64,000 nucleotides of DNA from Nitrospinae bacterium CG11_big_fil_rev_8_21_14_0_20_45_15 (GCA_002787235.1 PCWG01000035.1:101109-165108); one strand, 5' to 3'; shown: positions 26,398-52,483, numbered from the stretch's first letter. Notes: generated by a model from the letters alone, not told the origin. Translations and numbers: made by a program.

Positions 26398-26483
26398 AAG
26401 CTACGGTAAAATGAACTGTTAACAATCCGATTTTCTAAAAATCGGCACGCTCTATACGGACTCCGCTCCGACGGGCGTTTGCA
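26398..26483 (+). repeat. Modular hairpin repeat, copy 1 (degenerate)
   Basis: CTACGGTAAAATGAACTGTT...[22 nt]...GGACTCCGCTCCGACGGGCGTTTGCA aligns with the 50.7-kb copies. Confidence 0.75.
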
Positions 26484-26513
26484 TGAAAACCTAAACCTCA
26501 TCCAAACATCATC

Positions 26514-26558
26514 CTGAACAAAGCGAAGGATCTCTGTAGTCCAAACTCATGAAAGACA
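26514..26558 (+). repeat. 45-bp repeat of the CTGAGCxAAGCGAAGGATCTC type
   Basis: 40/45 identical to the reverse complement of 52163-52207. Confidence 0.8.
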
Positions 26559-26648
26559 ACTTCTCCTGAATTGTCTTTGCACGGAAGCATCGACCTAATA
26601 ATCCGTTTTTTAAGGGATACAAATTGCCCTGGCAAACTGTCCGCGCGT

Positions 26649-28742
26649 CTACCGCGAACTCATTGCCTTTTTAGTATCTGCAATCCATTGGTCTACCGTC
26701 TTCACTCGATACACCAAGCCAGCCTTGTCAAAAATCGACCGAGCCTTTTCAAAATATTGCAACGCTTTGGCATGATCCTTTTTATTATAATATCCCGATC
26801 CCAGATTATTCCAATCTCTTGCCACATCAGGATGATCGGAACCATAGGTCTTGAGATCGCTCGCCAACGCTTTCTCGTAATAACCAACGGCCTTGTCAAA
26901 TTCGCCTTTAGAATGCCAGGCTCCGCCCAAATTGTTCCAACGAGTCGCTACGTTTGGATGTGCGGGACCAAAGGTCTTGAGGTCGCTCGCCAGTGCTTTT
27001 TCGAAATAGCTGATGGCCTTATCGTATTCACCTTTAGAATTCCACGCCAATCCCAGATTGTTCCAACGAGTCGCTACATTTGGATGGTCTGGACCGAAGG
27101 TCTTGAGATCACTCGCTAACGCTTTCTCGTAATAGCCGATGGCCTTGTCGTATTCGCCTTTTGAATTCCACGCCAATCCCAAATTGTTCCAATACGTCGC
27201 AATCCCAGAATATTCTGGACCGAAGGTCTTGAGATCGCTCGCCAGTGCTTTTTCGTAATAGCCAATAGCCTTATCGTATTCTCCTTTCGACTTCCAAGCC
27301 ACTCCCAGATTGTTCCAATACGTCGCAATTCCAGGATGCTCGGGACCGAAGGACTTGAGATCGCTCGCCAACGCTTTCTCGTAATAGCCGATGGCCTTAT
27401 CGTAATCCCCTTTTGCCCGCCACACTTCTCCCAAATTGTTCCAATAGGTCGCTACCTTGGATTGCCCGGGACCGAAGTTCTTGAGATCGCTCGCCACTGC
27501 TTTTTCAAAATAGCCGATGGCCTTGTCGTAATCCCCTTTGGCTTTCCACACTTCTCCCAGATTATTCCAATACCGCGCAATTCCAGAATGTTCGGGACCA
27601 AAGGTCTTCAGATCACTCACCAGTGCTTTTTCGTAGTAGTCGATGGCTTTGTCATATTTGCCCTTCGCTTTCCACGCCCCTCCGAGATTGTTCCAATACG
27701 TCGCAACTTGCGGATGTTCGGGACCGAAGGTCTTGAGGTCGCTCGCCAGTGCTTTCTCGTAATAGACGATGGCCTTGTCGTACTCCCCTTTTGCTCTCCA
27801 GACTTCTCCCAAATTGTTCCAACGAATCGCCACATTCGGATGTTTGGGTCCAAAGGTCTTGAGGTCGCTTGCCAGTGCTTTTTCGTAATAGCCGATAGCC
27901 TTGTCGAATTCGCCTTTCGAATTCCACGCTCCTCCCAAATTGTTCCAACGAGTCGCTACATTTGGATGTTCGGGACCAAAGGTCTTGAGGTCGCTCGCCA
28001 GTGCTTTCTCGTAATAGCCGATGGCCTTGTCGTATTCCCCTTTTGCCCGCCACACTTCTCCCAAATTATTCCAATACGTAGCAACTTGAGGATTTTCCGG
28101 ACCGAAGGTCTTGAGACTGCTAGCCAATGCTCTCTCGTAATAGCCAATGGCTTTGTCGTATTCGCCTTTAGCATTCCATGCCAATCCCAAATTGTTCCAA
28201 TACGTCGCAACTTGGGAATTTTCGGGAACTAAGGACCTGAGGTCGCTATCCAGAGCATTTTTGTAATAACCGATGGCCTTGTCGTAATCCCCTTTTGCCC
28301 TCCACGCTTCTCCCAAATTGTTCCAGGAAGTCGCCACGAAATGATGATCGGGACCAAAGGTCTTGAGACCGCTCGCCAGTGCCTTTCTGAAATAACTGAT
28401 GGCTGTGTCGTATTCACCTTTCGCAGACCACGCTAATCCGAGACTGTTCCAGTAAATCGCAATTTGAGGATGTTCGGGACCAAAGGTCTTGAGGTCATTC
28501 GCCAAAGCGTTTTCGAAATAGCTGATGGCCTTGTCGTATTCGCCTTTAGAATACAATTCCAATCCCAGATTGTTCCATACACCTGCAATCGGGAAATGCT
28601 CTGGACTGACGTTGACCGTCGCCTGCCGATTGGTATTACCAGAATCTTCCTGTGCTAAAAGGGTAGAGCCCGACCCTGCCAGAATAAGAGCAGATATCAA
28701 ACAGAATAAATTAATTTTAGATTTTATGATTTGTTTGTACAT
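26649..28742 (-). CDS. Secreted tetratricopeptide repeat protein with 15 x 42-aa repeats
   Basis: Signal peptide, then 15 WNNLG...KGEYDKAIxYYEKALASDLKTFGP units (126-nt period). Confidence 0.93.
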   Translation of the reverse strand: MYKQIIKSKINLFCLISALILAGSGSTLLAQEDSGNTNRQATVNVSPEHFPIAGVWNNLGLELYSKGEYDKAISYFENALANDLKTFGPEHPQIAIYWNSLGLAWSAKGEYDTAISYFRKALASGLKTFGPDHHFVATSWNNLGEAWRAKGDYDKAIGYYKNALDSDLRSLVPENSQVATYWNNLGLAWNAKGEYDKAIGYYERALASSLKTFGPENPQVATYWNNLGEVWRAKGEYDKAIGYYEKALASDLKTFGPEHPNVATRWNNLGGAWNSKGEFDKAIGYYEKALASDLKTFGPKHPNVAIRWNNLGEVWRAKGEYDKAIVYYEKALASDLKTFGPEHPQVATYWNNLGGAWKAKGKYDKAIDYYEKALVSDLKTFGPEHSGIARYWNNLGEVWKAKGDYDKAIGYFEKAVASDLKNFGPGQSKVATYWNNLGEVWRAKGDYDKAIGYYEKALASDLKSFGPEHPGIATYWNNLGVAWKSKGEYDKAIGYYEKALASDLKTFGPEYSGIATYWNNLGLAWNSKGEYDKAIGYYEKALASDLKTFGPDHPNVATRWNNLGLAWNSKGEYDKAISYFEKALASDLKTFGPAHPNVATRWNNLGGAWHSKGEFDKAVGYYEKALASDLKTYGSDHPDVARDWNNLGSGYYNKKDHAKALQYFEKARSIFDKAGLVYRVKTVDQWIADTKKAMSSR

Positions 28743-28890
28743 GGGGAGATCGCCTCGATTGAGTGAGACTTTATTCTATCTAGTTTGGATCCGCTTAGCA
28801 AGATCAGAGAGATAACAGAACATCGCTCTAAAAAACAAAAACCATTTCATTTGACGGGAGTTTTACCATGCACGGTGGACTGTTTTTCTG

Positions 28891-28998
28891 GACACACCCG
28901 CCGGAGCGGAGTCCATATAAAAATCATGCGTATTAAGGAACGGATCTTTGGAATAGTTCAATGGCCTCCGGCGGCTTCGCCGGGCAGGCTAGGTCTGC
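28891..28998 (-). repeat. Modular hairpin repeat, copy 2
   Basis: The reverse complement reads GCAGACCTAGCCTGC-CCGGCGAAGCCGCCGG-...GAACTATTCCAAAGATCCGTTCC-[22 nt]-GGACTCCGCTCCGGCGGGTGTG. Confidence 0.85.
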
Positions 28999-29372
28999 TT
29001 GGCCCGTTTGTACATAGTCCATGCGAAAGTGAACCATCCGATCATGAAAGAGAGGCCACCAAGTGGGGTGATGGGACCGAGGAATCGGGGTCCATCAAAA
29101 GTGAGGCCATACAGACTGCCACAAAACAGGACAATCCCAGCGGTAAAAAAGATGCCCGATTTTTTGAGAGCTTTGTTGTCAGGTGCGCCGATTATCAGGC
29201 AGACAATGCCCAGTAAGATGAGTGCCAAGGCGTGATAGCCGAGGTAATGCGTTGCGGTTTGAAAAACTGCGAGTTTTTTTTCTGTGAGGATGGCTTTCAG
29301 AGAATGAGCCCCAAAAGCACCCAGCATCACACTCAGTCCACCAAAAGTTGCGCCGAGTGCGATCCAGGGCAT
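28989..29372 (-). CDS. DUF423 / YgdD-TMEM256 family membrane protein
   Basis: GAFGAH...FQTATHY...H...FCGSLY...GPITPLGG. Confidence 0.9.
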   Translation of the reverse strand: MPWIALGATFGGLSVMLGAFGAHSLKAILTEKKLAVFQTATHYLGYHALALILLGIVCLIIGAPDNKALKKSGIFFTAGIVLFCGSLYGLTFDGPRFLGPITPLGGLSFMIGWFTFAWTMYKRAKQT

Positions 29373-29380
29373 GATGGGTA

Positions 29381-29784
29381 TCAGTCTTCGGATTCTTCAA
29401 GCCGTGCGATGGCTCGAAACAACTTCTTCTGTGCTTTTTCAAACTCCTCGTGATTGAGATCCGTTCGACTCAAAGTCTCTTCCGCTCTTTTGCGTGCGGC
29501 ACGAGCGCGTTCGGCATCAATCTCGGGTCTGAATTCTGCTGTTTCCGCTAGGATAATTACGCGATTTTCAGTCACCTCTGCGTATCCCCCACTGACTACC
29601 ATTGAGTAGGTTTCATCTCCCTTTTGATAGGAGAGTGTACCCGCGCGCATGGTGGTCAAAATTGGAGCATGGTCGAACAGGATGCCCAAATCACCTTCGG
29701 TGCCGGGAATATTCACTTGTTCCGCATCGTCTGCGACGATGAGTTTTTCCGGCGTTACGATACTCAGTTGTAGTAAGTCAGCCA

Positions 29785-29785
<1 letters not shown>
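29381..29785 (-). CDS. atpC: ATP synthase F1 epsilon
   Basis: IVTPE, PGTEGDLGILFDHAP and SGGYAEV; operon position. Confidence 0.96.
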
Positions 29786-31242
<1,457 letters not shown>

Positions 31243-32100
31243 TCAGGCTTTTAAAGCTTCTGCCCCGTTTACGATTTCGATCAATTCTTTAGTGATGTAT
31301 GCTTGCCGCGCCTGGTTGTAGGTCAATGTCAAGGCACCTATCATCTCGCCAGCATTTCGAGAAGCACTGTCCATAGCCGTCATGCGTGCCCCGTGCTCTC
31401 CAGCGGAAGTTTCGAGAAAAGCCCGATACACCTGCACTCGCATGTATCGCTTGAGAAGTGCGTCAAGCATCTCTTCTTCTTCAGGCTCATATATGTAATC
31501 TATTGTCTGTCCATTTTCATCACCGCTTTCAGGAACAATTGGCAGAAGTCTTTCAACCACTACGTCCTGTTGCATGACGGATTTGAATTCGTTATAGACA
31601 ATAAATACCTGGTCAGCAGTTTTATTAGTGAATGCTTCCGCTAATTCGTCACCAATTTGAGCGGCAAGATCGTAATTGAAACCTTTTGTCCAACCAATAA
31701 ATTGCTTTGTGATATCGCAATCCTGAGATTTGAAAAAATCGTGACCTTTCTTGCCTGCAAGAATGAGCGAATCGGCCTTACTTCTGTTGCCGATTTCCTT
31801 CGCTGTTCGACGGATAATATTTCCATTGAACCCACCGCAGAGACCTTTATCGGCGGTGATCACCAGATAAAGTCTTTTATCACCTTCACGATTATCAAGT
31901 AGCGGATGCAGGTCGTAATTACATCGGGCGGCAAGATGACTCAATGTTTCCATCATTTTGACGGCATAGGGCCTGGCACCCATTATGGCGGTCTGAGCTT
32001 TCCTCAGTTTGGATGCCGCCACCAGTTTCATCGCTTTGGTGATCTGCTGAGTATTCTTGACGCTTTTAATACGGCGCCGAATGTCTTTAAGATTGGGCAT
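31243..32100 (-). CDS. atpG: ATP synthase F1 gamma
   Basis: SVKNTQQITKAMKLVAA and ARQAYITKELIEIV. Confidence 0.98.
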   Translation of the reverse strand: MPNLKDIRRRIKSVKNTQQITKAMKLVAASKLRKAQTAIMGARPYAVKMMETLSHLAARCNYDLHPLLDNREGDKRLYLVITADKGLCGGFNGNIIRRTAKEIGNRSKADSLILAGKKGHDFFKSQDCDITKQFIGWTKGFNYDLAAQIGDELAEAFTNKTADQVFIVYNEFKSVMQQDVVVERLLPIVPESGDENGQTIDYIYEPEEEEMLDALLKRYMRVQVYRAFLETSAGEHGARMTAMDSASRNAGEMIGALTLTYNQARQAYITKELIEIVNGAEALKA

Positions 32101-32185
32101 GGATTGGCTTTTAAAGTACTGTCGTTATGATTTTTGACTTGCACTCACCCGGACTTCTGGAGCGAATGCCTGAACGTTATACGAT

Positions 32186-33691
32186 TTACTCAAAAAGACC
32201 TTTGTACTCTTCGATTGCGGCTTTTAGTTTGGCCTCAATATCATCGTCAAGTTTCTTCTGCTTTTCAATCGTCTCAATAACGTCTACGTATTTTTCTTCC
32301 ATGAAGTTCAGAAACCCACTTTCAAATTTCTTGATCTTCGATGTCTCAACATCGTCCAGCAAACCACGAACACCCATAAAAATGGAAATAACCTGATGGG
32401 TGGTCTTAAGAGGACGATATTGATCCTGTTTCAAAAGTTCAACGAGGCGTTCCCCGCGTGCTAACTGGCTTTGTGTTGCCGCATCAAGGTCACTTCCGAA
32501 CTGTGCAAATGCCGCCATTTCGCGGTATTGCGCAAGATCCAGACGCAACTTACCAGCAACTTGTTTCATGCCTTTGGTTTGCGCCGCACCACCGACTCGG
32601 GATACGGACAGACCGACGTTGATCGCGGGACGTACACCGGAGAAGAACAAGTCTGTCTCAAGATAAATTTGCCCGTCTGTAATAGAAATAACGTTTGTCG
32701 GGATGTAAGCGGATACGTCGCCAGCCTGTGTTTCGATGATCGGCAATGCCGTGAGTGAACCGGCACCTAAATCATCGTTCAACTTGGCGGCTCGTTCGAG
32801 CAATCGTGAGTGAACATAGAAAACGTCACCGGGATACGCTTCTCGTCCTGGCGGGCGTCTCAAAAGGAGTGACAACTGGCGATATGCGGCGGCTTGTTTT
32901 GATAGATCATCGTAAACGATGAGACAGTGTTGCCCGTTATCGCGAAAATATTCACCCATCGCGCATCCAGCATAAGGTGCGATGAATTGCAAAGGCGCAG
33001 GCTCACTGGCCGTTGCTGAAACGACAATCGTATACTTCATCGCATCGTGCTCTTCCAGAGTTTTCACAACGCGTGCGACCGTGGAACGTTTCTGTCCGAC
33101 CGCAACATAAATACAAATAACGTTTTGGCCTTTTTGATTGAGGATAGTATCAATCGCTACTGCGGTTTTACCAGTCTGGCGGTCACCAATGATCAACTCA
33201 CGCTGACCACGTCCGATGGGAATCATACCGTCGATTGCTTTAATACCGGTCTGCATGGGCTCGTGAACGGATTTTCGAGCCGTAACGCCGGGAGCAATTC
33301 TTTCTATAGGACCAAAACGCTCGGCCTTAACCGGACCTTTTTCGTCAATGGGTTCACCGAGGGAGTTTACAACGCGTCCCACCAGTTCAGGGCCTACAGG
33401 AACTTCCATGATACGTCCTGTGCGTTTGACTTCATCGCCCTCTTTAACCTTGTCGTCAAAACCCAGAAGAACAGCACCCACATTGTCTTCTTCAAGGTTC
33501 AAAACCATACCCACAAGCCCGCCGGGAAATTCAAGCAGTTCGCTGAGCATGGCATTTTCAAGACCATAGATTCGCGCGATTCCGTCACCGACGGAAATTA
33601 CCCTGCCGGTTTCTTTCAGCTCGATACTTGTGTCGAATCCCTCAATCTGTTTCTGGATCAGGGAGCTTATTTCATCGGCTCGCAAATTCAC
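32186..33691 (-). CDS. atpA: ATP synthase F1 alpha
   Basis: GDRQTGKT and [15 protein letters not shown]. Confidence 0.99.
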
Positions 33692-34243
33692 TTAAACGAC
33701 CTCCTCTTTCTCGATAGCTTGTTTCAGAATGGACAAACGATTGCGAATACTGGCATCTGCGACGGTATCACCTACTTGTAGCGTCACTCCACCAATCAGC
33801 GTATTGTCCACGCGGGTTTCAATGATTATTTTTTTATTCAGGATTCGACCTAGTGCATCGCGCAGGTGGTTTACCTGGTCATTCGCCAACTCTCGTGTAG
33901 CAGATACGGTGACACGTACTTGGTTCAATCTCTCATCAGACACTTTTTCAAAATAGTTCGCTATAGAACGGAGAAACAAAATCTTTTTCCGTTCCGTCAA
34001 CAAGAGAATCATACTCCGTACGGCATCCCCAGCTTTCAGCTGGTCGCAAAGCGTTTGGACCATCTGCGCTTTATTTTCCTGAGGAATTCCGGGATGCGCA
34101 AAGAATCGAACCAGGTCAGGTTGAGCTTCAAATGCAGAACAAAAACTTTGAAGACTCCACAGCACACCGTCCAGATTCCTTGCGTCCGTGATACTCTTGG
34201 ACAAAGCATCTGCGTATCGTTTTCCAATTGCGTTTCTTAGCAT
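33692..34243 (-). CDS. atpH: ATP synthase F1 delta
   Basis: RYADAL and VDNTLIGG...DASIRNRL. Confidence 0.93.
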   Translation of the reverse strand: MLRNAIGKRYADALSKSITDARNLDGVLWSLQSFCSAFEAQPDLVRFFAHPGIPQENKAQMVQTLCDQLKAGDAVRSMILLLTERKKILFLRSIANYFEKVSDERLNQVRVTVSATRELANDQVNHLRDALGRILNKKIIIETRVDNTLIGGVTLQVGDTVADASIRNRLSILKQAIEKEEVV

Positions 34244-34272
34244 AGTTTGTTTCCGACGACCCTAATGGACCT

Positions 34273-34791
34273 TCAATTGGCACTCTGTTCCATCGATCGA
34301 ATCACTTCATCGATGGACTCGTTGATCAATTCTTGACTGGTCTGATCATCCAGTCTTTTTCTCAGAAACTTCTCTACAGAGGCCACGGTCAACTCAGCCG
34401 CATAATTGCGAATATCGTTGAACAATTTATTGCGGGAACTTTGAATTTCGTACTCCGCTTCTTGTTGCATTTGTTTGATCTTGGCCTGAGTCTCCTGCAA
34501 CAACTTGTCCTGATTTTTCTTGGCTTCATCGTGCGCCAACTGGACAATCGTATTCGCCTTCTCGTGTGCCTTTTTCAGCTCAGCCTCAAGCTCGGCTTTA
34601 ATCTTCTGACCCTCCGCTCGCAGTTGTTCCGCGGAAGAGATGTCATTCCGAATTTTCGACTCGCGCTCTTCCAAAGCTTCCAGAATAGGAGGAAACGCAT
34701 ACTTCTTGAGAAGTACGAAAAGAATTGCAAATGAAACCAGCGACCAAAATATAAGGGAGGAAAATACTCCCACTTGTTCAAATTGAGGCAT
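34273..34791 (-). CDS. atpF: ATP synthase Fo b
   Basis: MPQF N-terminus, a TM helix, then a coiled coil; operon position. Confidence 0.92.
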   Translation of the reverse strand: MPQFEQVGVFSSLIFWSLVSFAILFVLLKKYAFPPILEALEERESKIRNDISSAEQLRAEGQKIKAELEAELKKAHEKANTIVQLAHDEAKKNQDKLLQETQAKIKQMQQEAEYEIQSSRNKLFNDIRNYAAELTVASVEKFLRKRLDDQTSQELINESIDEVIRSMEQSAN

Positions 34792-34936
34792 TATAGTCTC
34801 TTTAAAAGTTTACTAAGAAAAACCCTTTGGAAAAATTTCGTCTGTGCTCCCCCTCTACTTAATGAGAGACAACAACACAAACAAAATTTTCTCAGGTCAT
34901 TCTTAAGTCTGAGAATTTGGCTCCAACAGGGGGGAA

Positions 34937-34961
34937 AGGCCGGAAATATTCTTTCCAGCCT
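34937..34961 (-). promoter_or_regulatory. Stem-loop immediately after atpE
   Basis: AGGCTGGAAA-GAATA-TTTCCGGCCT on the minus strand about 10 nt after the atpE stop; may stabilise atpE mRNA (inference). Confidence 0.5.
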
Positions 34962-34971
34962 CGCATTCCCA

Positions 34972-35199
34972 TTATTTGCTGGGCATAATTATAAAAGCAA
35001 TTACCAGAGCGTAAAGCGCGATAGCTTCGACGAGTGCAAAACCAATCCAGCAGTACTTGGCAACACGTGCTTCCGCATTTGGCTGTCGCCCTACCGTTTC
35101 AATGGTTTTTGCAAAAATATAGGCAATTCCCAATGCCGCTCCAAAAAATCCGGCCGCACACAAACCCATTCCAATCAATGCCGCTGCTTCTTGACCCAT
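34972..35199 (-). CDS. atpE: ATP synthase Fo c
   Basis: GRQP loop and essential Glu in VEAIALY. Confidence 0.97.
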   Translation of the reverse strand: MGQEAAALIGMGLCAAGFFGAALGIAYIFAKTIETVGRQPNAEARVAKYCWIGFALVEAIALYALVIAFIIMPSK

Positions 35200-35289
35200 T
35201 CTTTCATCTCCTCAAAAAATATATAATATATAGAAGAACTTCTGTTTTTATCGATCTTAATAAGTTTACTTCAAAGCATTTCTATCGCA

Positions 35290-42476: not shown

Positions 42477-42543
42477 TGCTCATTAATAAATTAGCCGGAT
42501 ACATTTAGTTTTTAATTCAATCATTTTCAATTCAGGAGATCTT

Positions 42544-43272: not shown

Positions 43273-43286
43273 GAAGTCTGCGTCAT

Positions 43287-43324: not shown

Positions 43325-43398
43325 AATTCATTTTATCAGGAAATACGGATGCACCTTTCCTTCCACGCAGTTGACCCGTCTTGGGAATCAGTTCAAAC

Positions 43399-44967
43399 AT
43401 GAATGAAAGGGACAGTACCTTTAATCGATGGCATGGGCTGGCAATCTTCCTGATTGCCATTGCGACTCGCTCTCTTTATTTTTTTCAGTTTCAAGACAAT
43501 CCCCTTTTCAACTACATTCCCGAACACACCGACTCTCAGCATTACGACACAGGCGCGCTGAGTTTTGCGAACGGGGACTGGATGGCAACGGCAACCGTTA
43601 ATATTTTTTCCCCGCTGTACAAATACCTCGTCGGATTCATCTATCTGACCTTCGGGAGAAATCTTCCCGTCGTCTGGTTCTTCCAGTTTTTGATGGGAGC
43701 CATCACCGTCCTGTTGATATTCCTGATCTGCGAAAAACTTTTCAACCAGCGAACCGCCTGGATATCCGCCCTACTGTACAATTTTCACGGTCCTGTCCTG
43801 ATGTATGAAGGAATCCTTTTGCGAGCCTCCCTCATTGCCTTTTTGGGAATCCTGTCGCTGTACCTGCTCATACGACTGCCCTCAAAGCCAGACTGGAAAC
43901 AACTGATGTTTGCAGGCTTGGGAATTTCTCTTTTCATCCAAAGTCGCCCGAACACCGCACTGGTTTTTGTCCTGATTTTTTTGTACTGGTTTTTTGTTGC
44001 CAAAAGAAAAGAATGCAACGTGCATCCCCCCCTGTTCCTTTGGGTCGGCTTATTTTTTCTTCCTTTATTGATTCAAGCCGGAATAACTCACGGGAAATTC
44101 GTTTTCTTTGAATTCAGCGGCCCCGCGTCCATCCTGCACGGCAACCACCCCGAACACATTGGGATGGGACACTCAGCCGAGCTTCATCACCCCGACGGTT
44201 ACAAACTGAGCACCACGGAAACCCTCAAAATATTTGCCATGCGCTTCATAGAGCATCCGCAAGCGATGGCTTTCCTGTTCGCAAGAAAACTGTATTTTTT
44301 CTTTTGTTCGTTTCAAGTCCCCAATAATTTTGACTACAATTTGTTCAAGGATTTTTCCTTTTTACTGCACGGCCCCTTGTCGAATTTCGGATTATTGTCC
44401 TCCCTCGGACTCGTCGGATTTGTCCTCGCATTTCGGGAACATCAAAAACTATGGCTCCTCTATTGCTACGCCATCGGCATGACCGGAGCGGTGATATTAT
44501 TTTTTGTACTGGCGCGTTATCGCATTCCAGTGATCCCATATTTTGCGATTTTTTCCGGCGTTGCAGTCGACCGAATCCTGCACTCAATAGATGCCCGTCA
44601 AACACGACAATGGGTTATAAGTACTGCCAGCGCGATTGCCTTGTTCGCATTCTTCAACTATCAGGCCTTGATACCTGATTTCAAACTGACAGGTCACAAA
44701 AGTTACGATCAGCGAATCGGCGAATATTATGTGCGGGCGGGAAGACTGGCCGAAGGCCATGCGAGGATCACAATATTTCTGAATCAATTCCCAAACGATG
44801 CGGGAGCCTCAAAAGTTTTGGGAATGATTTATCAACAAACGAATCAATGGGAAAACGCACTCAGAGAATTTGAACGCGCCGACCGCCTAGCTCCGAACGA
44901 TCCATGGACGCAAATGCAATTGAAACTAATGCGGGAAAAATACAACGCAAATAATTCCATGAACTAA
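43399..44967 (+). CDS. ArnT/PMT-like (GT39/GT83) membrane glycosyltransferase with C-terminal TPR
   Basis: DSQHYD periplasmic acidic motif, PLYKY, multiple TM helices, RYRIP and a terminal TPR. Confidence 0.75.
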   Translation: MNERDSTFNRWHGLAIFLIAIATRSLYFFQFQDNPLFNYIPEHTDSQHYDTGALSFANGDWMATATVNIFSPLYKYLVGFIYLTFGRNLPVVWFFQFLMGAITVLLIFLICEKLFNQRTAWISALLYNFHGPVLMYEGILLRASLIAFLGILSLYLLIRLPSKPDWKQLMFAGLGISLFIQSRPNTALVFVLIFLYWFFVAKRKECNVHPPLFLWVGLFFLPLLIQAGITHGKFVFFEFSGPASILHGNHPEHIGMGHSAELHHPDGYKLSTTETLKIFAMRFIEHPQAMAFLFARKLYFFFCSFQVPNNFDYNLFKDFSFLLHGPLSNFGLLSSLGLVGFVLAFREHQKLWLLYCYAIGMTGAVILFFVLARYRIPVIPYFAIFSGVAVDRILHSIDARQTRQWVISTASAIALFAFFNYQALIPDFKLTGHKSYDQRIGEYYVRAGRLAEGHARITIFLNQFPNDAGASKVLGMIYQQTNQWENALREFERADRLAPNDPWTQMQLKLMREKYNANNSMN

Positions 44968-44980
44968 AAAGCAACAGGGT

Positions 44981-47806
44981 TTACAGATAATCCTTCAAGT
45001 ATTTCCCGGTGTAAGATTTTTCATTTTTTGCAATTTGCTCCGGTGTTCCCTGCGCGATCAAGCACCCGCCCTTGTCCCCACCTTCCGGCCCCAGATCAAT
45101 GACATGATCCGCTGTCTTTATCACTTCCATATTGTGTTCGATGATGATCACCGTATTCCCCGTATCGGTCAATTTCGCAAGCACCACCAAAAGATGTTCC
45201 ACGTCCGCAAAATGCAAACCGGTTGTCGGTTCGTCCAGAATGTACAGGGTCTGACCCGTGGTGCGTTTGCTCAGTTCCTTCGACAGCTTGACCCTTTGCG
45301 CTTCCCCTCCCGACAACGTGGTCGCGGCTTGACCCAGCTTGATGTAATCCAGTCCCACATCGGCGATGGTTTCCAGTTTCGATTTGAGAGAGGGAATGTT
45401 CTTGAAAAATTCGCGGGCCTCTTCAACCGTCATGTCCAAAATCTGGGCGATATTTTTTCCCTTGTAGGCCACCTCCAGCGTTTCGCGGTTGAAGCGTTTG
45501 CCCTGACACGATTCGCAGGTGACAAATACATCGGGCAGAAAATGCATCTCCACCTTGATGAGCCCGTCGCCCTGGCAGGTTTCACATCGGCCCCCTTTCA
45601 CATTGAAGCTGAAGCGACCGGGCTTGTAACCACGCACACGCGATTCGGGAGTTTCACTGAATAGCTCACGGATGATCGTGAACACACCGGTGTAGGTCGC
45701 CGGATTGGAGCGCGGCGTCCTTCCGATCGGGGATTGATCGATATCAATGACTTTATCAATGTACTGAATACCTTGAATTTTTTCGAACTGGCCGGGTTTG
45801 TCGACAGACTTCCAGAAATGTTGCGCCAGTGCCTTGTACAGGATATCAATGACCAACGTGCTTTTGCCGGAGCCACTCACACCCGTCACACAAATCAATT
45901 TCCCCAACGGAAATTCGACATCGATTTTTTTCAGATTGTTCTGTTCGGCACCCACAATTTTAAGTGCCTTGCCATTTCCTTCGCGACGATTTTTCGGTAC
46001 GGGAATTTTCTTTTTGCCCGAAAGGTATTGCCCGGTCAAAGACTTTTTACTCTTCAACATTTGCGCAGGCGTGCCTGAAAATATGATCTCTCCACCATGC
46101 ACTCCCGCACCCGGACCCAAATCGACAACATGATCGGCCGCAAGAATGGTCGCGTCGTCGTGTTCCACAACCACAACGGTGTTGCCAAGATCGCGCAGGT
46201 GTAACAGCGTTTTCAGCAAGCGGTCATTGTCGCGTTGATGCAGGCCAATGCTCGGCTCGTCCAGTACATAAAGCACCCCCATGAGCGACGAACCGATCTG
46301 CGTGGCCAGACGAATGCGCTGACTCTCGCCGCCGGAAAGTGTCGCAGAGGTTCGGCTCATCGACAAATAATCGAGACCGACGTTGATGAGGAATCCCAGA
46401 CGTTCGCGTATTTCCTTGACGATGCGACGCGCTATCAGGTTTTCCTGTTCTGAAAGTTTCAGCTCATTAAAATAGTTGTACAAAGCTTCAATCGACAGGC
46501 GTGTGAGTTCGATGATGTTCTGCTCGCCCACACGCACGGAGATGGCGCAGGGTGTCAAACGCATGCCGTTGCATTGACTGCAATCCAGCGTACGCATGTA
46601 CTTGTGAATTTCATCCCGGGCCGAATTCGATTCAGTCTCGTGATAGCGGCGTTCCAGATCGGGGATGATGCCATCAAACGTTCCCATGTAATGCTGGCGT
46701 TGATTATTCTTTTCGTAAAAATACTGAATGGACTCAGCTCCCGAACCGTACAGCAGTATTTGCTGTATTTTTTCCGGCAGGTCTTTGTAGGGCACCGTTA
46801 ACTTGAACTTGAAATGTTTGGAAATCGTTTCCAGCATCTGATGAAAAAATACCGAGTTCTTTTTCTCCCAGGGCTTGAAAACTCCCTCACTCAAAGACAG
46901 CGACGGATCGGGAATGACCAGATCGGGATCGACCACCATCTTCGTTCCCAATCCATCGCATTTGGGACACGCCCCATTGGGATTGTTGAACGAGAACAGA
47001 CGCGGCTCCAGTGGCGGGTAACTGATTCCGCAATAATTACACGCAAATTTTTCGCTGAACAGTTGATCTTCACTTTGCCCCTTGTCCCCAATCGTTGCGA
47101 TCACCACAGCCCCTTCACCATGCTCCAGAGCGGTTTCTACAGAATCGGCCAAGCGCCGTCCCATGTTTTCCTTGACCACCAGACGGTCGATAACGATCTC
47201 TATCGTGTGCTTGAATTTTTTATCGAGGGTGATTTCCTCGTCCAGTGACCTCACCTCGCCATTGACCCGTGCGCGCACAAATCCATTCTTGCGCATTTGC
47301 GCCAGTTCCTTTTTGAACTCCCCTTTGCGGTTGCTGACGAGGGGAGCAAGGATCATTATTTTCGAGCCAATCGGAATGTTGCCGACTTGATCCACAATCT
47401 GCTGAGCCGACTGCCGGGAAATTTCACGCTCGCATTGATAACAATACACGCGCCCGACCCGCGCAAACAAAAGCCGCAGATAATCATAAATCTCCGTCAC
47501 GGTCCCGACCGTGGAGCGCGGATTGCGACTCGATGTCTTCTGCTCGATCGAAATGGCGGGTGAAAGTCCCTCGATGGAATCGACATCGGGCTTCTCCATC
47601 AACTCCAGAAATTGCCGCGCGTAGGCGGACAGCGACTCGACATAACGGCGTTGCCCCTCGGCGTACAAGGTGTCGAATGCCAATGAAGATTTTCCCGAGC
47701 CGCTCAAACCGGTGAAGATCACCAGTTTGTTGCGCGGAAATTCGAGCGATACGTTTTTCAGATTGTGCTCGCGTGCGCCTTTAATGATTATTTTATCGGT
47801 TGCCAT
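44981..47806 (-). CDS. uvrA: Excinuclease ABC subunit A
   Basis: [10 protein letters not shown] and [10 protein letters not shown]-loops, Zn fingers, and two LSGGE signatures. Confidence 0.99.
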
Positions 47807-47833
47807 GAAATGTGAGTGGGTGGGGAATCGGTA

Positions 47834-49648
47834 TTAAAAGAGGTGCTTCCATTTTTCGTCTACTTGCTGGACCATTTCGGGTGACATTTTTATCTCTTCC
47901 GGCCAACCCTGCACGTGTCCTTCTTCGGGAAATTTTTTCGACGCATCAATGCCCAGCCGCCCTTCAATCAAATATAGATCACGGCGCGGATCGATGTTAT
48001 TGAGCACCTTCCACATCGTTGTAGAAAGATCCCCCGGGTCGGTGTCTTCATCGACAACGATGAATATCGAGATGTCCCGGTTCTGCGAATCGTTCAGAAA
48101 ACTCTGGATCAATTCCCGCGACTCATGCGCTTCCGTTTTCTCGGCAGATGCAAACAACACGGAAAGCCGGGTGTCCATCTCCAGCACTTGACACGCCGTG
48201 ATGCTGGAATATTTATTCAACACGCGTTCCGGTTCAAAATCTTCGGCATTGGCTTGTGTTGCCTCCAATTCTGTTTCGAATCCCAACTCACCTTCTATTT
48301 TTGCAGTGAGGTCGATGCCTAACTTGGAACCATACAAGGCGTTATCCGATGCGTGATTCAGCACATCCATCACCCCTTCTGAAAAGAACAGGTCACGATT
48401 GAGATCGACTTTATTGAGGAGCAGGAAAGCAACTTCCACCAGATCGTGAACATCGATGCTGGAATCGACAACAACGATGGTTTTGACAAAACTCATCTGC
48501 CCCAATCCCCACAGGGAACTCATGAGCCGCCGCGCCTGCATGGGAAAACGCTTGTCGATGGACACGATCACCAGATTATGAAATACCCCTTCCGCCGGCA
48601 TGTTCATGTCCACAATCTCCGGCAACTGCGTTCGCATGAGCGGCAGGAAAATGCGCTCCGTCGCTCTGCCGAGATACAAATCTTCCTGCGGCGGCTTGCC
48701 CACAATCGTGGTCAGGTAAACGGGATTCTTCCGATGCGTGATCGCTGTGACGTGAAACACCGGATAAGGCCCGGCATGGGAATAATAACCCGTGTGATCG
48801 CCAAAAGGCCCTTCTATCCGGCTCTCGGCGGGGTCAATGTAACCTTCCAATACAATTTCAGCAGATGCCGGAACTTCCAGATCGACGGTCTTGCATTTGA
48901 CCAGTGGAACCGGAGACTTGCGCAAAAATCCCGCCAGCAAAAATTCGTCCACGCCATAAGGCAGAGGGGCCGAAGCGGAATAACACACCGCAGGATCGGC
49001 TCCAATGGCGACCGCCGTTTCCATCACCTGATGCTTTTTTTTGTATTCATAAAAAAAATGCGCGCCGTCTTTATGGATGTGCCAGTGCATGCCGGTGGTG
49101 TTCTTGTCGTACACCTGCATGCGATACAATCCCACATTGCGGATTTTCCCATCCGCGCTCCGGTTCACCACAATCGGAAGTGTGATGAAACGTCCCGCAT
49201 CGTTCGGCCAGCATTTGAGAATCGGAATGCGGGTGAGATCAACATCATCGCCCTTCAACACCACTTCCTGACAGGGGGCGGTTCGCACCTTCCGGGGAGG
49301 GAATTGTGACGCCTCCAGCAAGAGCGGCAGTAACTTTATTCTGTCTGCCCAGGTCGTTGGCGGCGCAAGTTTGATATACTTTTCAATGGCCGTGGGAATC
49401 TCTTCGATGTCTTCGACACCCAGAGCAAGGTTCATCCGGCGCGCGCTTCCAAAGGCATTGATGAGAACCGGCATGTCACAACCGATGACGTTCTCGAACA
49501 AAAGGGCCTTGCCGCCATCGGGACTCTTGGAAATTCGGTCCGTTATTTCTGTTATTTCCAAATCTCTGGAAACGGGATCGGAAATTCTGATAAGCTCTCC
49601 CTCATCGGAGAGACGCTGGATAAATTCTTGCAAAGAATAAAAAGACAT
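47834..49648 (-). CDS. UbiD-family decarboxylase (menaquinone/futalosine-pathway type) with duplicated C-terminal module
   Basis: EGPFGDHTGYY; two DP-RD...K/RLGID repeats; start re-called at MSFYSL (49648). Confidence 0.88.
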   Translation of the reverse strand: MSFYSLQEFIQRLSDEGELIRISDPVSRDLEITEITDRISKSPDGGKALLFENVIGCDMPVLINAFGSARRMNLALGVEDIEEIPTAIEKYIKLAPPTTWADRIKLLPLLLEASQFPPRKVRTAPCQEVVLKGDDVDLTRIPILKCWPNDAGRFITLPIVVNRSADGKIRNVGLYRMQVYDKNTTGMHWHIHKDGAHFFYEYKKKHQVMETAVAIGADPAVCYSASAPLPYGVDEFLLAGFLRKSPVPLVKCKTVDLEVPASAEIVLEGYIDPAESRIEGPFGDHTGYYSHAGPYPVFHVTAITHRKNPVYLTTIVGKPPQEDLYLGRATERIFLPLMRTQLPEIVDMNMPAEGVFHNLVIVSIDKRFPMQARRLMSSLWGLGQMSFVKTIVVVDSSIDVHDLVEVAFLLLNKVDLNRDLFFSEGVMDVLNHASDNALYGSKLGIDLTAKIEGELGFETELEATQANAEDFEPERVLNKYSSITACQVLEMDTRLSVLFASAEKTEAHESRELIQSFLNDSQNRDISIFIVVDEDTDPGDLSTTMWKVLNNIDPRRDLYLIEGRLGIDASKKFPEEGHVQGWPEEIKMSPEMVQQVDEKWKHLF

Positions 49649-49767
49649 AATGGGTTCGATGATTGCAGGATTAGAAACCGGACCCCGTATTATATATGAA
49701 TGCGGCTTCATGAAAATAATAAAAACAGGACAGCGGCAATGAGTTTTTTCTGGAAGGTCTCTCAGGT

Positions 49768-50682
49768 ATGATCCGATATTTTTTCAAACGCCTTCTGCAC
49801 GGTGTCCCCGTCCTCATCGTGGTGGCGACGCTCACCTTCTTCATCATGCGCACCGTCCCCGGCGGCCCCTTCGACACGGAGAAAAAACTGCCGCCGGAAA
49901 TCATCGCCAATATCGAAGCCAAATATCATCTCGACAAGTCCCCGACCGAACAGTACCTGCTCTACCTGAAAGCACTCGCACAAGGCGACCTCGGCCCTTC
50001 TTACAAATACATTGGCCGCGATGTTTCCAACATCATCGGCGACACCTTTCCGGTGTCCATCGCACTCGGCCTCTCGGCCCTGCTCGTCGTCGTCGCGTTC
50101 GGTGTCCCCTGCGGAATCGCCGGGGCCTACTGGAGGGGTTCGCCCATCGACCGCATTGTGGTGTTCTTTGCCACACTGGGGATATCCGTCCCCAGCTTTG
50201 TTTTGGGCGCGTTACTGGTCTGGGCCTTCGCGCACCAGTTCCACTGGTTCCCTCCCGCCCTGTGGGAAAGCTCGCACCATGCCATCCTGCCCGCACTCGC
50301 TCTCGGTGCTCCCTTCGCCGGTTACATTGCCCGACTCACCCGCACCTCTGTTCTCGACGTATTGTCCGCCGACTACATCCGCACCGCACGCGCCAAAGGT
50401 CTCAGCGAACCGACCATCCTGTTCAAGCATGTCCTGAAAAATTCTCTGTCCCCCATCGTGTCGGTACTCGGTCCGCTGACTGCCGGACTCGTGACCGGAT
50501 CGTTCGTCATCGAATTCATATTTTCGATCCCCGGAATGGGACGATTCTTCATCACCGCTGTCACCAATAGGGACTATCCGCTCATCATGGGGGTGACGCT
50601 CGTCTACTCTGTCCTCATCGTACTGGCAAACATCATCGTCGACATGATCTACGCCTGGCTCGACCCCCGCGTGCAGGTGTAG
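49768..50682 (+). CDS. oppB: Peptide ABC transporter permease (OppB/DppB)
   Basis: PGGPFD, DYIRTARAKGL EAA loop and RDYPLIMG. Confidence 0.93.
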   Translation: MIRYFFKRLLHGVPVLIVVATLTFFIMRTVPGGPFDTEKKLPPEIIANIEAKYHLDKSPTEQYLLYLKALAQGDLGPSYKYIGRDVSNIIGDTFPVSIALGLSALLVVVAFGVPCGIAGAYWRGSPIDRIVVFFATLGISVPSFVLGALLVWAFAHQFHWFPPALWESSHHAILPALALGAPFAGYIARLTRTSVLDVLSADYIRTARAKGLSEPTILFKHVLKNSLSPIVSVLGPLTAGLVTGSFVIEFIFSIPGMGRFFITAVTNRDYPLIMGVTLVYSVLIVLANIIVDMIYAWLDPRVQV

Positions 50683-50866
50683 GCCTAGCCTACAGTGAAA
50701 AGAACTATTCAAAAGATCGTTTCATTCGTGCGGATCGGCTCAAGGGGACCCCGCTCCGGCGGGCGTGTGCAAGCCCGGCGAGCCGCCGGGGGCAATAAAA
50801 CTATTCAAAAGATCGTTTCGTTCGTGCGGATCGGCTCAAGGGGACCCCGCTCCGGCGGGCCTGTGC
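50679..50866 (+). repeat. Modular hairpin repeat, tandem copies 3 and 4 (96-bp period)
   Basis: The 68-nt blocks at 50703-50770 and 50799-50866 differ at 2 positions; GTAGGC-CTA-GCCTAC hairpin at 50679-50693. Confidence 0.95.
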
Positions 50867-51159
50867 TAACAACAGGCAGGCCTAATCTACTTGGTGGACC
50901 TATTTATCCGGGATTGCCGGGAAATTCATTCTAAGCTACAATTAATCTACGGATATCCGAAACGTCTACAAAGGTTTCACAGTCACCCAAACCGACCCAG
51001 TGCGCTACACCATGAACAACAAGCGCACCGAGTCTCGCAAAAAATCAGAACTCCTCATAAGGAATTTTTAATATTGAAAAAAGACGCTTATCGACCCAAA
51101 GTGGACATTCCCCTTTTACGCTACACAGTATGACAAACAGCACTTTTGTAGGAGAATAG

Positions 51160-51852
51160 GTGACAAAAATGAAAAAAAAAGCTGATCACTTAAGAAGCAT
51201 TGAAACCGCTATAGTTGAACTAGCCTTATTAGAAGACCGCACAAGGGCTCCCAATCCAATTCCCCATCAATATATTGGAACTATAGTCGACAACACCCTA
51301 GGTTTACTTACAGCTTCTGCAAATTCACTAGATAACGGCGTAAGAATAGTTACTTTTTCTGACGATAAAAATTGGCTTTCATTAATGCAAGCTGTGCATA
51401 GATCTTTTTTTTCATCAATCCATATAGCCATAGAAATAAGCTTTGAAAGAATACTTGAAGATCGCAACATACAGGTAGAAAACAAACAACAGATAAAGCT
51501 TAACAAAGAACTTAAAACTTTTGAGCCGATCGATAAAAAACTCGAAGCCTTCATAACCAAAATAATTAAAGGAATCCCTCTTAATTTTAAAGATAAGTTA
51601 AATGCGGTACTTAAGCTAACTTCACTAAGTAATAATGAGAAGAAGAAATGGAGAAAATTTTTTATAGGCATGACAATTGTAAGAAACAAAGTTTCGCATA
51701 GTAATCCAACCTTAACTCAACAACAACAAGAGGATTTAAAACAGGGTGGCCTTCAAGTTTTGGTCTCAGAAAATGGCAATTTAAAAGCAAACCCCAGAAT
51801 GTACAAACAATTTGCAGAATTTTCTCTTAATTTCTTTGATTTAATGAACTGA
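51160..51852 (+). CDS. AT-rich hypothetical protein with HEPN-like RxxxxH motif
   Basis: AGGAG RBS and GTG start; helical protein with RNKVSH near the C-terminus. Confidence 0.6.
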   Translation: MTKMKKKADHLRSIETAIVELALLEDRTRAPNPIPHQYIGTIVDNTLGLLTASANSLDNGVRIVTFSDDKNWLSLMQAVHRSFFSSIHIAIEISFERILEDRNIQVENKQQIKLNKELKTFEPIDKKLEAFITKIIKGIPLNFKDKLNAVLKLTSLSNNEKKKWRKFFIGMTIVRNKVSHSNPTLTQQQQEDLKQGGLQVLVSENGNLKANPRMYKQFAEFSLNFFDLMN

Positions 51853-51866
51853 GAAACGAGATAATT

Positions 51867-51983
51867 GCCTAACAAATCACTACACTGGATTTCCGTAGCC
51901 ATCGCATTGTGATGTCCGCTATTTGGTCTATAGCAGACAATCATCCTGCCTGAGTAGATCATTTTTTAGGTGAACTCTCTAGC
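51867..51983 (+). other. Possible decayed attC-like site
   Basis: GCCTAAC-AAATC-ACTACAC 14 nt after the stop codon; only a degenerate distal arm (GGTGAACTCTCTAG) is present. Confidence 0.3.
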
Positions 51984-52105
51984 AAAATCCAAACGAAATC
52001 GCACGTTACAAATCAGTTAATATGGCGTGTAGATACTAAAAAGGCGATGGGTTCGCGGTAGTGGCGCGATCAGTGTGTCAGGACGATTTTTATTCCTTGA
52101 AAAAT

Positions 52106-52141
52106 GGATTGCCGCGTCGGCTAAAGCCTCCTCGCAAAGAC
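52106..52141 (+). repeat. REP-like palindromic unit of the GATTGCCxCGTC...CCTCGCAAxGAC type
   Basis: GGATTGCCGCGTCGGCTAAAGCCTCCTCGCAAAGAC; resembles a widespread intergenic repeat class. Confidence 0.55.
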
Positions 52142-52162
52142 GGCTGGTTAGTGTTCTTGCCA

Positions 52163-52207
52163 TGTCTTCGATAAGTTTGGACTCCAGAGATCCTTCGCTT
52201 TGCTCAG
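52163..52207 (-). repeat. 45-bp repeat, partner of 26514-26558
   Basis: 40/45 identity in the opposite orientation. Confidence 0.8.
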
Positions 52208-52305
52208 AAAATGCAGGGGTGAACGAAGTGAACCGTTCTATATTTCTTCCTTGCATTTCTAGGAGCTATGCTCCTGAATGACGATTGGTTGGGGTTTTTG
52301 TTTTC

Positions 52306-52483
52306 TGCACACGCCCGCCGGAGCGGGGTCCAGTTGGGACCTATGAGATTTAAAGAAACGATCTTTTGAGTAGTTCTTTTCACCGCAGGCTTGGCCTGCC
52401 CGCCGGAGCGGGATCCCGTTGGAGAGCATAAGTTTTAAAGAAACGATCTTTGGATAGTTCTATTTACAACGGGCTAGGCCCGT
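52306..52483 (-). repeat. Modular hairpin repeat, tandem copies 5 and 6
   Basis: Reverse complements contain GCAGGCCAAGCCTGC or ACGGGCCTAGCCCGT hairpins, GAACTA(C)TC(C/A)AAAGATCGTTTC, a 23-nt core and GGA(C/T)CCCGCTCCGGCGGGC. Confidence 0.93.

Follow-up and report, generated by a model that had tools for sequence, protein, structure and literature searches.

Repeats and genes at the TPR and opp loci

The window analysed here is a 64,000-nt stretch of a Nitrospina genome (G000), which is compared with a sister MAG (G002) and a further relative (G001). Two accessory genes in the window are bracketed by copies of one repeat family, R. A combination of alignment, nhmmer and a covariance model placed all six copies of the preliminary description within a few bases of the positions reported there. 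Its modules were also right, comprising hairpin A, block B, a variable core, hairpin C (CCCGC-TCCG-GCGGG) and, in some copies, hairpin D, except that block B too forms a weak hairpin. Moreover, the copies face inward with hairpin A outermost as described, but in c1, although the unit is present, the 5' arm of hairpin A is absent. The first pair of copies encloses a TPR gene:

26377-26389, + strand: solo T motif AAGATTTGACCTC with 1 mismatch, 13 nt, in place of the 5' arm of c1 hairpin A
26398-26485, + strand: R unit c1 (placed at 26401-26485), head-truncated, after the TAG stop of a 282-aa gene at 25505-26353
26514-26688, + strand: X1 module, sharing 72% identity with X2, its inverted counterpart at 52022-52207
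26649-28742, - strand: gene of a 697-aa TPR_12 protein, built of 126-nt repeats
28885-28998, - strand: R unit c2 (placed at 28885-28996) with both hairpin A and hairpin D, orthologue of the lone G002 copy

The DUF423 gene takes its TAG stop from the loop of c2 hairpin A. In X1 an orf79-like frame is disrupted by a stop codon and indels of 7 nt and 4 nt, and pieces of X1 recur beside other R tails in the genome. The TPR gene is missing from this locus in both relatives; G001 has neither repeat nor cargo, and G002 has kept the equivalent of c2 without the TPR gene and without c1. The empty-site comparison proposed for the interval from the 25505 gene to DUF423 therefore shows repeat c2 alone at a cargo-free site in G002 and does not support a cassette. 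The remaining four copies lie between oppB and oppC:

49768-50682, + strand: oppB, with its TAG stop inside c3 hairpin A
50681-50772, + strand: R unit c3, head-to-tail with c4, the pair taking up 50679-50871
50786-50871, + strand: R unit c4, with hairpin D ahead of it at 50773-50791
50872-51091, + strand: L segment, unique and non-coding, about 85-90% identical to G002, ending at the junction motif
51092-51940, + strand: HEPN-like module, 33% GC, made up of the gene, a left motif and a right near-palindrome
51092-51109: left junction motif CGACCCAAAGTGGACATT of the HEPN-like module
51160-51852, + strand: HEPN-like gene with an invariant RNKxSH motif
51912-51940: right near-palindrome ATGTCCGCT-N11-AGCAGACAA of the HEPN-like module
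52017-52256, - strand: orf79 / X2 module, which matches no protein family and is doubtful as a gene
52302-52398, - strand: R unit c5, head-to-tail with c6
52398-52482, - strand: R unit c6, the c5/c6 pair taking up 52302-52483; hairpin A of c6 codes for the C-terminal residues of the Mo-oxidoreductase
52464-53261, - strand: Oxidored_molyb (MsrP-like) gene, with its first codons within the left TIR
53241-54327, - strand: TIRtron, inserted inside the FGE-MsrP gene pair
53241-53254 and 54314-54327: perfect 14-nt TIRs GGGGTCAAATCTTG / CAAGATTTGACCCC, the bounds of the Y1 gene
53278-54237, - strand: TIRYT gene (Y1_Tnp and Bac_DnaA_C; HUH motif HYH; Tyr in YIHRN)
54347-54994, - strand: FGE-sulfatase-family gene, which other genera have paired with the MsrP-like gene
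55063-55893, + strand: oppC, which directly adjoins oppB in seven related genomes

Residues R175, N176 and H180 of the RNKxSH motif are invariant across 21 homologues of the HEPN-like protein, which has no Pfam match and matches the PADLOC RTasHEPN model weakly (E = 0.0014). The HEPN-like gene moves independently, in a module whose palindromic end sites are different from R. This module, ~0.85 kb here and 0.92 kb in other contigs, was found in at least four unrelated contexts without R or T at 78-80% nucleotide identity. In G002 the c3/c4 site and the c5/c6 site hold one unit each, and a Septu PtuA/PtuB pair takes the place of the HEPN-like gene. The two Septu genes are adjacent and overlap by 8 nt, encoding an AAA ATPase (PtuA, PADLOC E = 3.4e-160) and an HNH protein (PtuB, E = 6.9e-65). 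Accordingly, the second proposed comparison, from oppB to msrP, revealed both repeats around different cargo rather than an empty site. No recombinase was detected by Pfam among the seven oppB-oppC ORFs examined, nor was a serine recombinase found in G000, G001 or G002.

Structure and genomic placement of the R family

The six copies are part of a larger family than had been described: G000 carries 29 units, spread over 23 loci, and G002 carries 23 units. None was detected in the 29 other Nitrospinales genomes scanned besides G002 (G001 and 28 further relatives). As in REP/REPIN families, the copies are numerous, extragenic and lineage-specific. A unit measures ~85 nt, or ~96-111 nt counting the terminal tail, and consists of a TAG tag and three hairpins: A, which has 6 bp and covaries, B, which is weaker, and C, which is invariant. 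At most heads TAG stands directly 5' of hairpin A; the tag reads GTAG in c3 only and CTAG or ATAG in the others. Set beside the PATE/MITE scheme derived from IS200/IS605, R has hairpins at both ends with A unlike C. Compensatory changes were observed at 6/6 pairs of hairpin A, whose covariation of 0.26 compares with 0.14 after shuffling and was equalled in 0/500 shuffles. Pairing in the hairpin of block B reaches 67% and includes many G-U pairs. Exact matches to the 14-mer of hairpin C number 23 in G000, 13 in G002 and 0 in G001, and its reversed control has 0 matches in the genome vs the 23 of the true sequence. These counts together with the compensatory changes in hairpin A indicate that R is not a product of chance. 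Identical dispersed copies were not found, the units being ~65-85% alike, and there is therefore no sign of recent transposition. A replication-strand bias was not found either (14/23 loci overall, 10/15 single loci).

R occurs singly or, often, in head-to-tail arrays directly behind a co-oriented gene, whose stop codon it frequently provides. A co-oriented ORF ends within 40 nt of the R head at 16 of the 23 loci, and 12 of these 16 ORFs stop with TAG vs a genome-wide TAG share of 16% (p ~4e-7, binomial); the other 7 loci do not lie behind a co-oriented ORF. The mnmE gene ends with TAA in G000, where R is absent, and with TAG followed by R in G002, so that TAG seems to be brought in by R. Similarly, oppB stops with TGA in the R-free G001 and with TAG within hairpin A in G000 and G002. 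GTAG REPs are known to supply TAG stops (PMC3733652). Tail-to-tail pairs make up four of the 23 R loci, their two tails lying about 195 nt to 2.4 kb apart, and the remaining 19 are solitary or direct tandem. Genes are enclosed by two of these pairs only, both of them in the window. The alternative offered in the preliminary description, that units inserted independently at the 3' ends of genes, fits these data better, as most units are solitary or tandem at such ends. The classification as REP/REPIN-like holds for its REP part (a TAG hairpin, extragenic and stop-supplying) but not for REPIN doublets, since R does not form closely spaced inverted REPs that fold into one long hairpin.

The Y1 gene, the T family and cargo turnover

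The gene described as a TIR-bounded RAYT is indeed a TIR-bounded Y1 HUH gene, but it belongs to the TIRtron class and R does not flank it. It is a TIRtron/TIRYT, and its Y1 HUH product carries a C-terminal HTH like that of DnaA. In Pfam it matched Y1_Tnp (E = 7.8e-11) and Bac_DnaA_C (E = 8.8e-8), and its match to the NCBIfam model REP_Tyr_transpos stayed under the cut-off. Its flanks are TIRs of the T family and not R; the nearest R unit is c6, past the MsrP-like gene and ~0.76 kb from the left TIR. The TIR fits the GGGGWSAS motif at 7 of 8 positions (GGGGTCAA). The TIR sequence also forms a dispersed family, as it does in some TIRtrons: at up to 2 mismatches T has 58 matches, of which about 40 are intergenic, vs 12 with the reversed control, and the exact 13-mer was counted 18 times in G000, 14 times in G002 and 0 times in G001. 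T adjoins truncated R units twice. The TIRYT gene is the sole Y1 gene of the G000 genome, and R, T and the Y1 gene are all confined to the same two genomes. As these are closely related, the co-occurrence of R and Y1 amounts to effectively one phylogenetic event. Co-occurrence plus proximity suggest a link between R and the enzyme, and this sole HUH protein probably generated or maintains T and may have done so for R.

At three R brackets the cargo differs among close relatives. The opp bracket, the sole one in which both cargo junctions can be read, has one breakpoint at the R tail and the other ~220 nt inside; the right G000/G002 junction falls directly behind ...GTGTGCAG. The two other brackets have one readable breakpoint each, at the boundary of an R unit or tail. 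One R bracket holds a pentapeptide-repeat gene in a ~89%-identical strain and only repeat-module fragments in G000. The yidC-mnmE gap contains an inverted R unit and an X fragment in G000 and a remnant of that unit in G002. Homology breakpoints were also located in this gap and at the c2 tail of the TPR locus, and for L127 vs C21 at model position 85.

Interpretation and comparison with known systems

Taken together, we consider R, with a probability of roughly 60%, to comprise REP-like gene-end elements, with tail-to-tail pairs that fall at hotspots for accessory genes. The six copies are members of a lineage-restricted REP-like element, and each inward pair would consist of two gene-end copies at facing transcription-unit ends. 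Accessory genes have been gained or replaced in the DNA between the R tails, and the bracketed gaps would be safe and recombination-prone sites rather than transposon ends. That R pairs mark hotspots is an impression from three loci.

The preliminary description had proposed R-delimited cargo cassettes mobilised in trans, i.e. composite R-cargo-R units that are cut out and inserted as wholes by the Y1 enzyme next to them via single-stranded hairpins. We regard this as very unlikely even though both window brackets enclose accessory genes, a third one in the related strain surrounds the pentapeptide-repeat gene, R and the Y1 gene share a narrow distribution, and the TAG-tagged hairpin is like RAYT substrates. 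In G002, c2 is kept without c1 or the TPR gene and both opp repeats are kept around other cargo, the left G000/G002 breakpoint at opp does not lie at an R end, and the HEPN module is also present in R-free contexts. Moreover, the outer R heads are fused to the stops of core genes (oppB, DUF423 and the MsrP-like gene), so that excision of a unit would strip these genes of their stop codons. Finally, 19/23 loci are not pairs, and the enzyme's own ends are T rather than R. A role at the RNA level would leave the Y1 gene irrelevant. In E. coli, REPs near stop codons have roles in upstream mRNA stability and translation termination, and R might likewise be a 3' UTR device that stabilises the upstream mRNA or modulates termination of translation, which we find doubtful. 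It is similarly improbable that sense orientation is kept by selection and that the inverted pairs are two convergent 3' UTRs. Units co-oriented with and abutting upstream stop codons, a hairpin A preserved by compensatory changes in old, diverged copies, the lack of identical recent copies and ~20 G-U pairs in helix B that are mismatches on the opposite strand all agree with such a device. However, G-T wobble is tolerated in single-stranded DNA hairpins as well, R has no T-run and is therefore not an intrinsic terminator, and at 7/23 loci the preceding sequence is not an ORF in the same orientation. The arrays, in which 3-5 units stand head-to-tail, and the insertions by which C-termini are rewritten are more like mobile DNA than evolved UTRs. 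As a secondary, exapted role, an RNA-level function is compatible with gene-end elements.

REPs are known as hot targets for some insertion sequences. The R tails could likewise be active integration targets, with X modules, T elements and gene modules inserted site-specifically either at the hairpin C base or in the R tail and the capture of cargo promoted. Several comparisons place homology breakpoints at the unit boundary or tail and T adjoins truncated units, but growth or shrinkage of tandem arrays at the boundary could give the same breakpoints. As the left cargo junction at opp is a unique motif inside L rather than an R tail, no recombinase is assigned and few loci are involved, we consider this reading rather unlikely. 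It is most improbable that the oppB-oppC block is an integron-like capture platform with TIRYT as its recombinase, in which gene modules with short palindromic ends, the HEPN-like one and perhaps Septu, inserted at the L motif and the same enzyme seeded R and T, with a GGGGTC/GACCC core common to all three. The order in this block is R, L with its unique attachment-like motif, swappable cargo, R, the MsrP-like gene, the TIRtron and the FGE gene. R itself does not behave as integron cassettes with attC sites do, as it lies behind core genes rather than cargo and forms arrays without ORFs.

GTAG-tagged REPs and BIMEs with a RAYT have been described in E. coli, Pseudomonas and Stenotrophomonas (Nunvar 2010; Bertels and Rainey 2011, PMC3116915; Di Nocera 2013, PMC3733652). 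Like these REPtrons, the REP-like elements of this study are short extragenic (G)TAG-tagged hairpins, present in tens per genome as singles, tandems and inverted pairs. They also lie near or over gene ends, where they supply TAG stops, in a lineage with a single-copy Y1 HUH gene. In contrast to the REP, a palindrome of 20-40 nt, R is a three-hairpin unit with a mostly CTAG or ATAG tag and no abundant master sequence, and the Y1 gene is not flanked by it. REPINs are compact hairpins, whereas R pairs are arranged tail-to-tail with spacers of 0.2-2.4 kb.

The TIRtron agrees with described TIRYTs (PMC3733652; TnpA-Y1 subclass 2.1.2, PMC6006769) in its Y1 HUH and Bac_DnaA_C domains, in flanking TIRs with GGGGWSAS and in a TIR sequence that is also a moderately abundant dispersed family. 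For subclass 2.1 genes, Quentin et al. 2018 found no REP-like sequences nearby (PMC6006769). The TIRtron analysed here differs from known ones in its Nitrospinota host, in its position inside an FGE-MsrP pair and in a co-resident second hairpin-type family, R.

In integron attC cassettes and Acinetobacter pdif modules, gene modules are bounded by short recombination sites. The HEPN-like module resembles these as a single gene with short imperfect palindromes in several contexts, including a site array (L140). Unlike in those systems, the opp locus has no integron integrase or other recombinase ORF in the island, and the module sites bear no likeness to dif. The AAC/GTT boxes of attC were absent by inspection both from them and from R. 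The opp locus is also similar to defence-island hotspots, as sister genomes carry different defence cargo, HEPN-like or Septu, at one position.

Anatomy and spread of the R repeats

The preliminary description had located six copies of a modular hairpin repeat in the window, and this was borne out; the copies can be aligned over ~85-110 nt. We refer to this REP-like family, which has a unit of ~85 nt with hairpins A, B and C, as R and to its units in the window as c1 to c6:

26401-26485 (+), R unit c1
28885-28996 (-), R unit c2
50681-50871 (+), R units c3 and c4
52302-52482 (-), R units c5 and c6

Hairpin C (CCCGC-TCCG-GCGGG) is near-invariant among the units. Hairpin A, the 5' arm of which is missing from c1, carries compensatory changes in 6/6 pairs (GTAGGC/GCCTAC, GCAGGC/GCCTGC, ACGGGC/GCCCGT, GCAGAC/GTCTGC and others) and reached a covariation score of 0.26 versus 0.14 in shuffles, with 0/500 shuffles being equally high. 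Block B forms a weaker helix that is 67% paired and contains numerous G-U pairs. When folded as single-stranded DNA, the units form the three hairpins; the z-scores, from -1.7 to -2.7, are modest. The R copies are old and have diverged, compensatory changes having preserved their hairpin A. An Rfam scan matched no family in the window, R included. A role of R as an intrinsic terminator was rejected, since it lacks a T-run and was not called by a terminator scan.

The genome analyzed here (G000; 3.37 Mb, 45% GC, 45 contigs, with the window at C32:101109-165108) was compared within its genus with the complete genome G001 and the fragmented sister MAG G002, whose oppB genes are 82% and 94% identical to that of G000, respectively. 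Iterated nhmmer searches of G000 yielded 23 solid and ~10 weaker R units. With a covariance model, 29 units were detected in G000 and 23 in G002; G001 and 28 further genomes from the family and order had none. Exact copies of the hairpin C 14-mer number 23 in G000, 13 in G002 and 0 in G001. Besides single units there are head-to-tail arrays, which repeat every 80-89 nt (three arrays of three units and the two doublets of the window), and four pairs are inverted tail-to-tail, namely two in the window and those at C21 18963/19431 and C21 79999/80376. Array length differs between strains, with five units at locus L134 versus one on contig C22, and locus L135 has an extra partial unit compared with contig C31. 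The unit boundary directly 3' of hairpin C is a repeated site of breakpoints. Measured against GC skew, R has no replication-strand bias (14/23 loci, not significant).

Accessory genes at the TPR and opp loci

It had been proposed that inward-facing repeats delimit mobile cargo cassettes. A comparison of the TPR site among relatives, a check named in the preliminary description, speaks against this cassette model. A distance of ~20 nt separates the 282-aa gene from the DUF423 gene in G001, which has neither a repeat nor the TPR gene there. The corresponding gap of ~220 nt in G002 holds only the c2 equivalent, situated on the DUF423 stop, and lacks c1 and the TPR gene, so that a genome without the cargo still has one of the two repeats. 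The block inserted in G000 comprises a copy of T (a dispersed family equal to the 14-nt terminal inverted repeat, TIR, of the Y1 gene), the truncated c1, the repeat module X1 and the TPR gene, and is joined to the resident c2 at the c2 tail. T was rejected as the left end of this cargo because the copy points the wrong way. Transfer of the same cassette from the mnmE locus of G002 was also rejected, as the N-termini show no relationship and the cargo is oriented differently relative to R and X. The TPR gene (26649-28742) contains ~14 near-identical 126-nt (42-aa) units, and at least one paralogue (C2:38576-40336) also adjoins an R unit.

Seven related genomes, among them G001 (250-nt spacer, no repeat), have oppC next to oppB. 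In two other genera, G012 (L017 5637-7448) and G011 (L018 8269-10000), the gap is also occupied; by eye, one holds a RecQ-like helicase gene and the other a cytochrome-c-like ORF together with the terminal portion of a large ORF that includes a sulfite-oxidase-like molybdoenzyme part. In Nitrospinaceae, insertions thus seem to have entered this operon gap recurrently. The gap in G000 measures 4.4 kb and contains, in this order, c3 and c4, a unique non-coding segment (L), the HEPN-like gene, X2/orf79, c5 and c6, the MsrP-like gene, the TIR-bounded Y1 gene (TIRtron) and the FGE gene. The frame is the same in G002, but its R units are single, and where G000 has the HEPN-like gene G002 has a Septu system (PtuA, E = 3.4e-160; PtuB, E = 6.9e-65). 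The homology of G000 with G002 extends on the left from oppB through R and L up to ...TTATCGACCCAAAG(Y)GGAC(R)TT, ~50 nt before each cargo start, and on the right ends at the R tail, ...GTGTGCAG. A 30-mer from L had no match in a metagenome scan.

The HEPN-like gene has 33% GC and an RNKxSH motif that is invariant in 21 homologues. It is part of a module:

51092-51940, HEPN-like module, ~0.85-0.92 kb in size, with palindromic end sites

On the left the module ends in CGACCCWWAGCNGACATTC, which lies ~100 nt before the gene start, and on the right in the near-palindrome AATGTCCGCT-N10-AGCAGACA, ~100 nt behind the stop; the palindromic sites are of AATGTCCGCT-N10-AGCNGACATTC type. The module recurs with 78-80% nucleotide identity in metagenome contigs with unrelated neighbours, its sharp boundaries being common to all, and none of these other contigs contains R or T. 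Moreover, its left motif is unique in G000 and equals the junction used by Septu in G002. It follows from the recurrence without R or T and the shared left junction that the opp cargo is a module of its own at a specific junction and is not delimited by R. This module type may represent an undescribed cassette system. Four module-type sites at locus L140 (1727, 2625, 3149 and 4356) bound successive gene-sized pieces; a split small serine-recombinase ORF lies just upstream of them. A serine recombinase as mover of the module in G000 was rejected, since G000, G001 and G002 have no PF00239 gene. Septu was rejected as a member of the module family, as its closest relative shares two ORFs only and no flanking sites. 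An integron reading of R and of the HEPN-like module was rejected: in Pfam, none of the seven ORFs examined between oppB and oppC is a recombinase, R stands behind core genes and not behind the cargo and also forms arrays devoid of ORFs, and on inspection neither R nor the module sites have AAC/GTT boxes.

Further R brackets were found elsewhere. In a metagenomic strain ~89% identical (L127), a 389-aa pentapeptide-repeat gene lies between a tail-to-tail R pair, and G000 has at this site only ~290 nt of repeat-module fragments. In the yidC-mnmE gap, which was compared by eye, G000 carries an X fragment together with an inverted R unit; of this R unit, G002 has no more than a remnant, and in both genomes an inverted block B encodes the mnmE N-terminus. 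Downstream of mnmE in G002 a composite of R and X precedes another TPR_12 gene (L030 2874-3060). Behind R tails, short repeated pieces make up the mosaic of the X modules:

26514-26688, window, X module or piece
52022-52207, window, X module or piece
~115100-115275, contig C35, X module or piece
~10408-10448, contig C21, X module or piece
80093-80142, contig C21, X module or piece
20387-20441, contig C22, X module or piece
~245570-245751, contig C37, X module or piece

We regard orf79 as a pseudogene or repeat module and not as a conserved small gene, since a stop and non-triplet indels disrupt its copy X1 and no family matched it.

The TIRtron and its dispersed family T

The window contains the only Y1 gene of G000, which encodes the enzyme TIRYT:

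53278-54237 (-), TIRYT ORF with Y1_Tnp and Bac_DnaA_C domains, HYH motif and YIHRN tyrosine motif
53241-53254 and 54314-54327, TIRtron ends, perfect 14-nt inverted repeats GGGGTCAAATCTTG and CAAGATTTGACCCC

TIRtrons have been described with the TIR consensus GGGGWSAS (PMC3733652), and no REP-like sequences were found near genes of TnpA-Y1 subclass 2.1.2 (PMC6006769). The Y1 gene and TIRs of the window match the TIRtron arrangement and correspond to this subclass. Given the TIRs, the domains and this arrangement, the gene had been correctly described as a TIR-bounded RAYT; the demonstrable partner of the enzyme, however, is T and not R.

Allowing ≤2 mismatches, the T motif has 58 matches in G000 versus 12 for the reversed control, ~40 of them intergenic, and exact copies number 18 in G000, 14 in G002 and 0 in G001. 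G002 has the Y1 gene with 89% identity, and G001 lacks it; the distribution of T thus equals those of R and of the Y1 gene, a co-occurrence that rests on two closely related genomes and amounts to effectively one event. GGGGTCC stands beside hairpin C on the R reverse strand in 13/20 units, T carries GGGGTCA, and in two cases T abuts a truncated R unit. This likeness and the abutment may hint at a connection.

The FGE-sulfatase/Mo-oxidoreductase gene pair is contiguous in other genera and interrupted by the TIRtron in G000. The MsrP-like (52464-53261) and FGE-sulfatase (54347-54994) genes form a two-gene unit kept across Nitrospinales genera, with a second paralogous pair at C4:36880-38324; in the window the unit has moved into the opp operon, where the TIRtron separates its two genes, and the MsrP-like ORF begins with codons of TIR sequence. 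Outside the window, at C21:100005-100713, a 172-aa gene with an RNHFEH motif and no family match lies between T motifs arranged as TIRtron ends, with an extra T copy at 100088. This may be a non-autonomous TIRtron derivative with a passenger gene.

R at gene ends

At 16/23 loci a co-oriented ORF ends ≤40 nt from the R head. TAG is the stop codon in 12 of these 16 ORFs versus 16% of long ORFs genome-wide (binomial p ~4e-7). The mnmE stop is TAA in G000, with no R behind it, and TAG followed by R in G002; similarly, oppB ends with TGA in G001 and with a TAG within hairpin A in G000 and G002. These differences between genomes indicate that the TAG stop arrives together with the R element. Besides, the stop codon of the DUF423 gene sits in the hairpin A loop, and the MsrP-like protein takes its six C-terminal residues from hairpin A of c6.

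The most fitting reading of R is a REP-like family of gene-end elements, which would have arisen in the lineage that also acquired the TIRtron. On this reading the inward-facing pairs are two gene-end copies on facing transcription units, and the gaps between their tails are places of accessory-gene gain and swapping. Inverted gene-end repeats around accessory genes therefore need not be transposon ends, which calls for caution.

Our analysis adds the Nitrospinota, a group of marine nitrite oxidisers, to the scope of REP-like and TIRtron biology. It also brings to light a HEPN-like gene in a small, mobile module whose ends are palindromic, and it locates an apparent hotspot of defence genes within the opp operon. 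Two sister genomes with the Y1 gene, T and R and a complete congener with none provide a clean natural comparison, in which one can ask whether dispersed repeat families are made by TIRYT enzymes; to our knowledge, this is still an open question for the largest RAYT-like class. In its behaviour R resembles a tagged REP with a longer, modular unit. The comparisons at gene ends show that elements of the R type change both the stops and the C-terminal ends of core genes.
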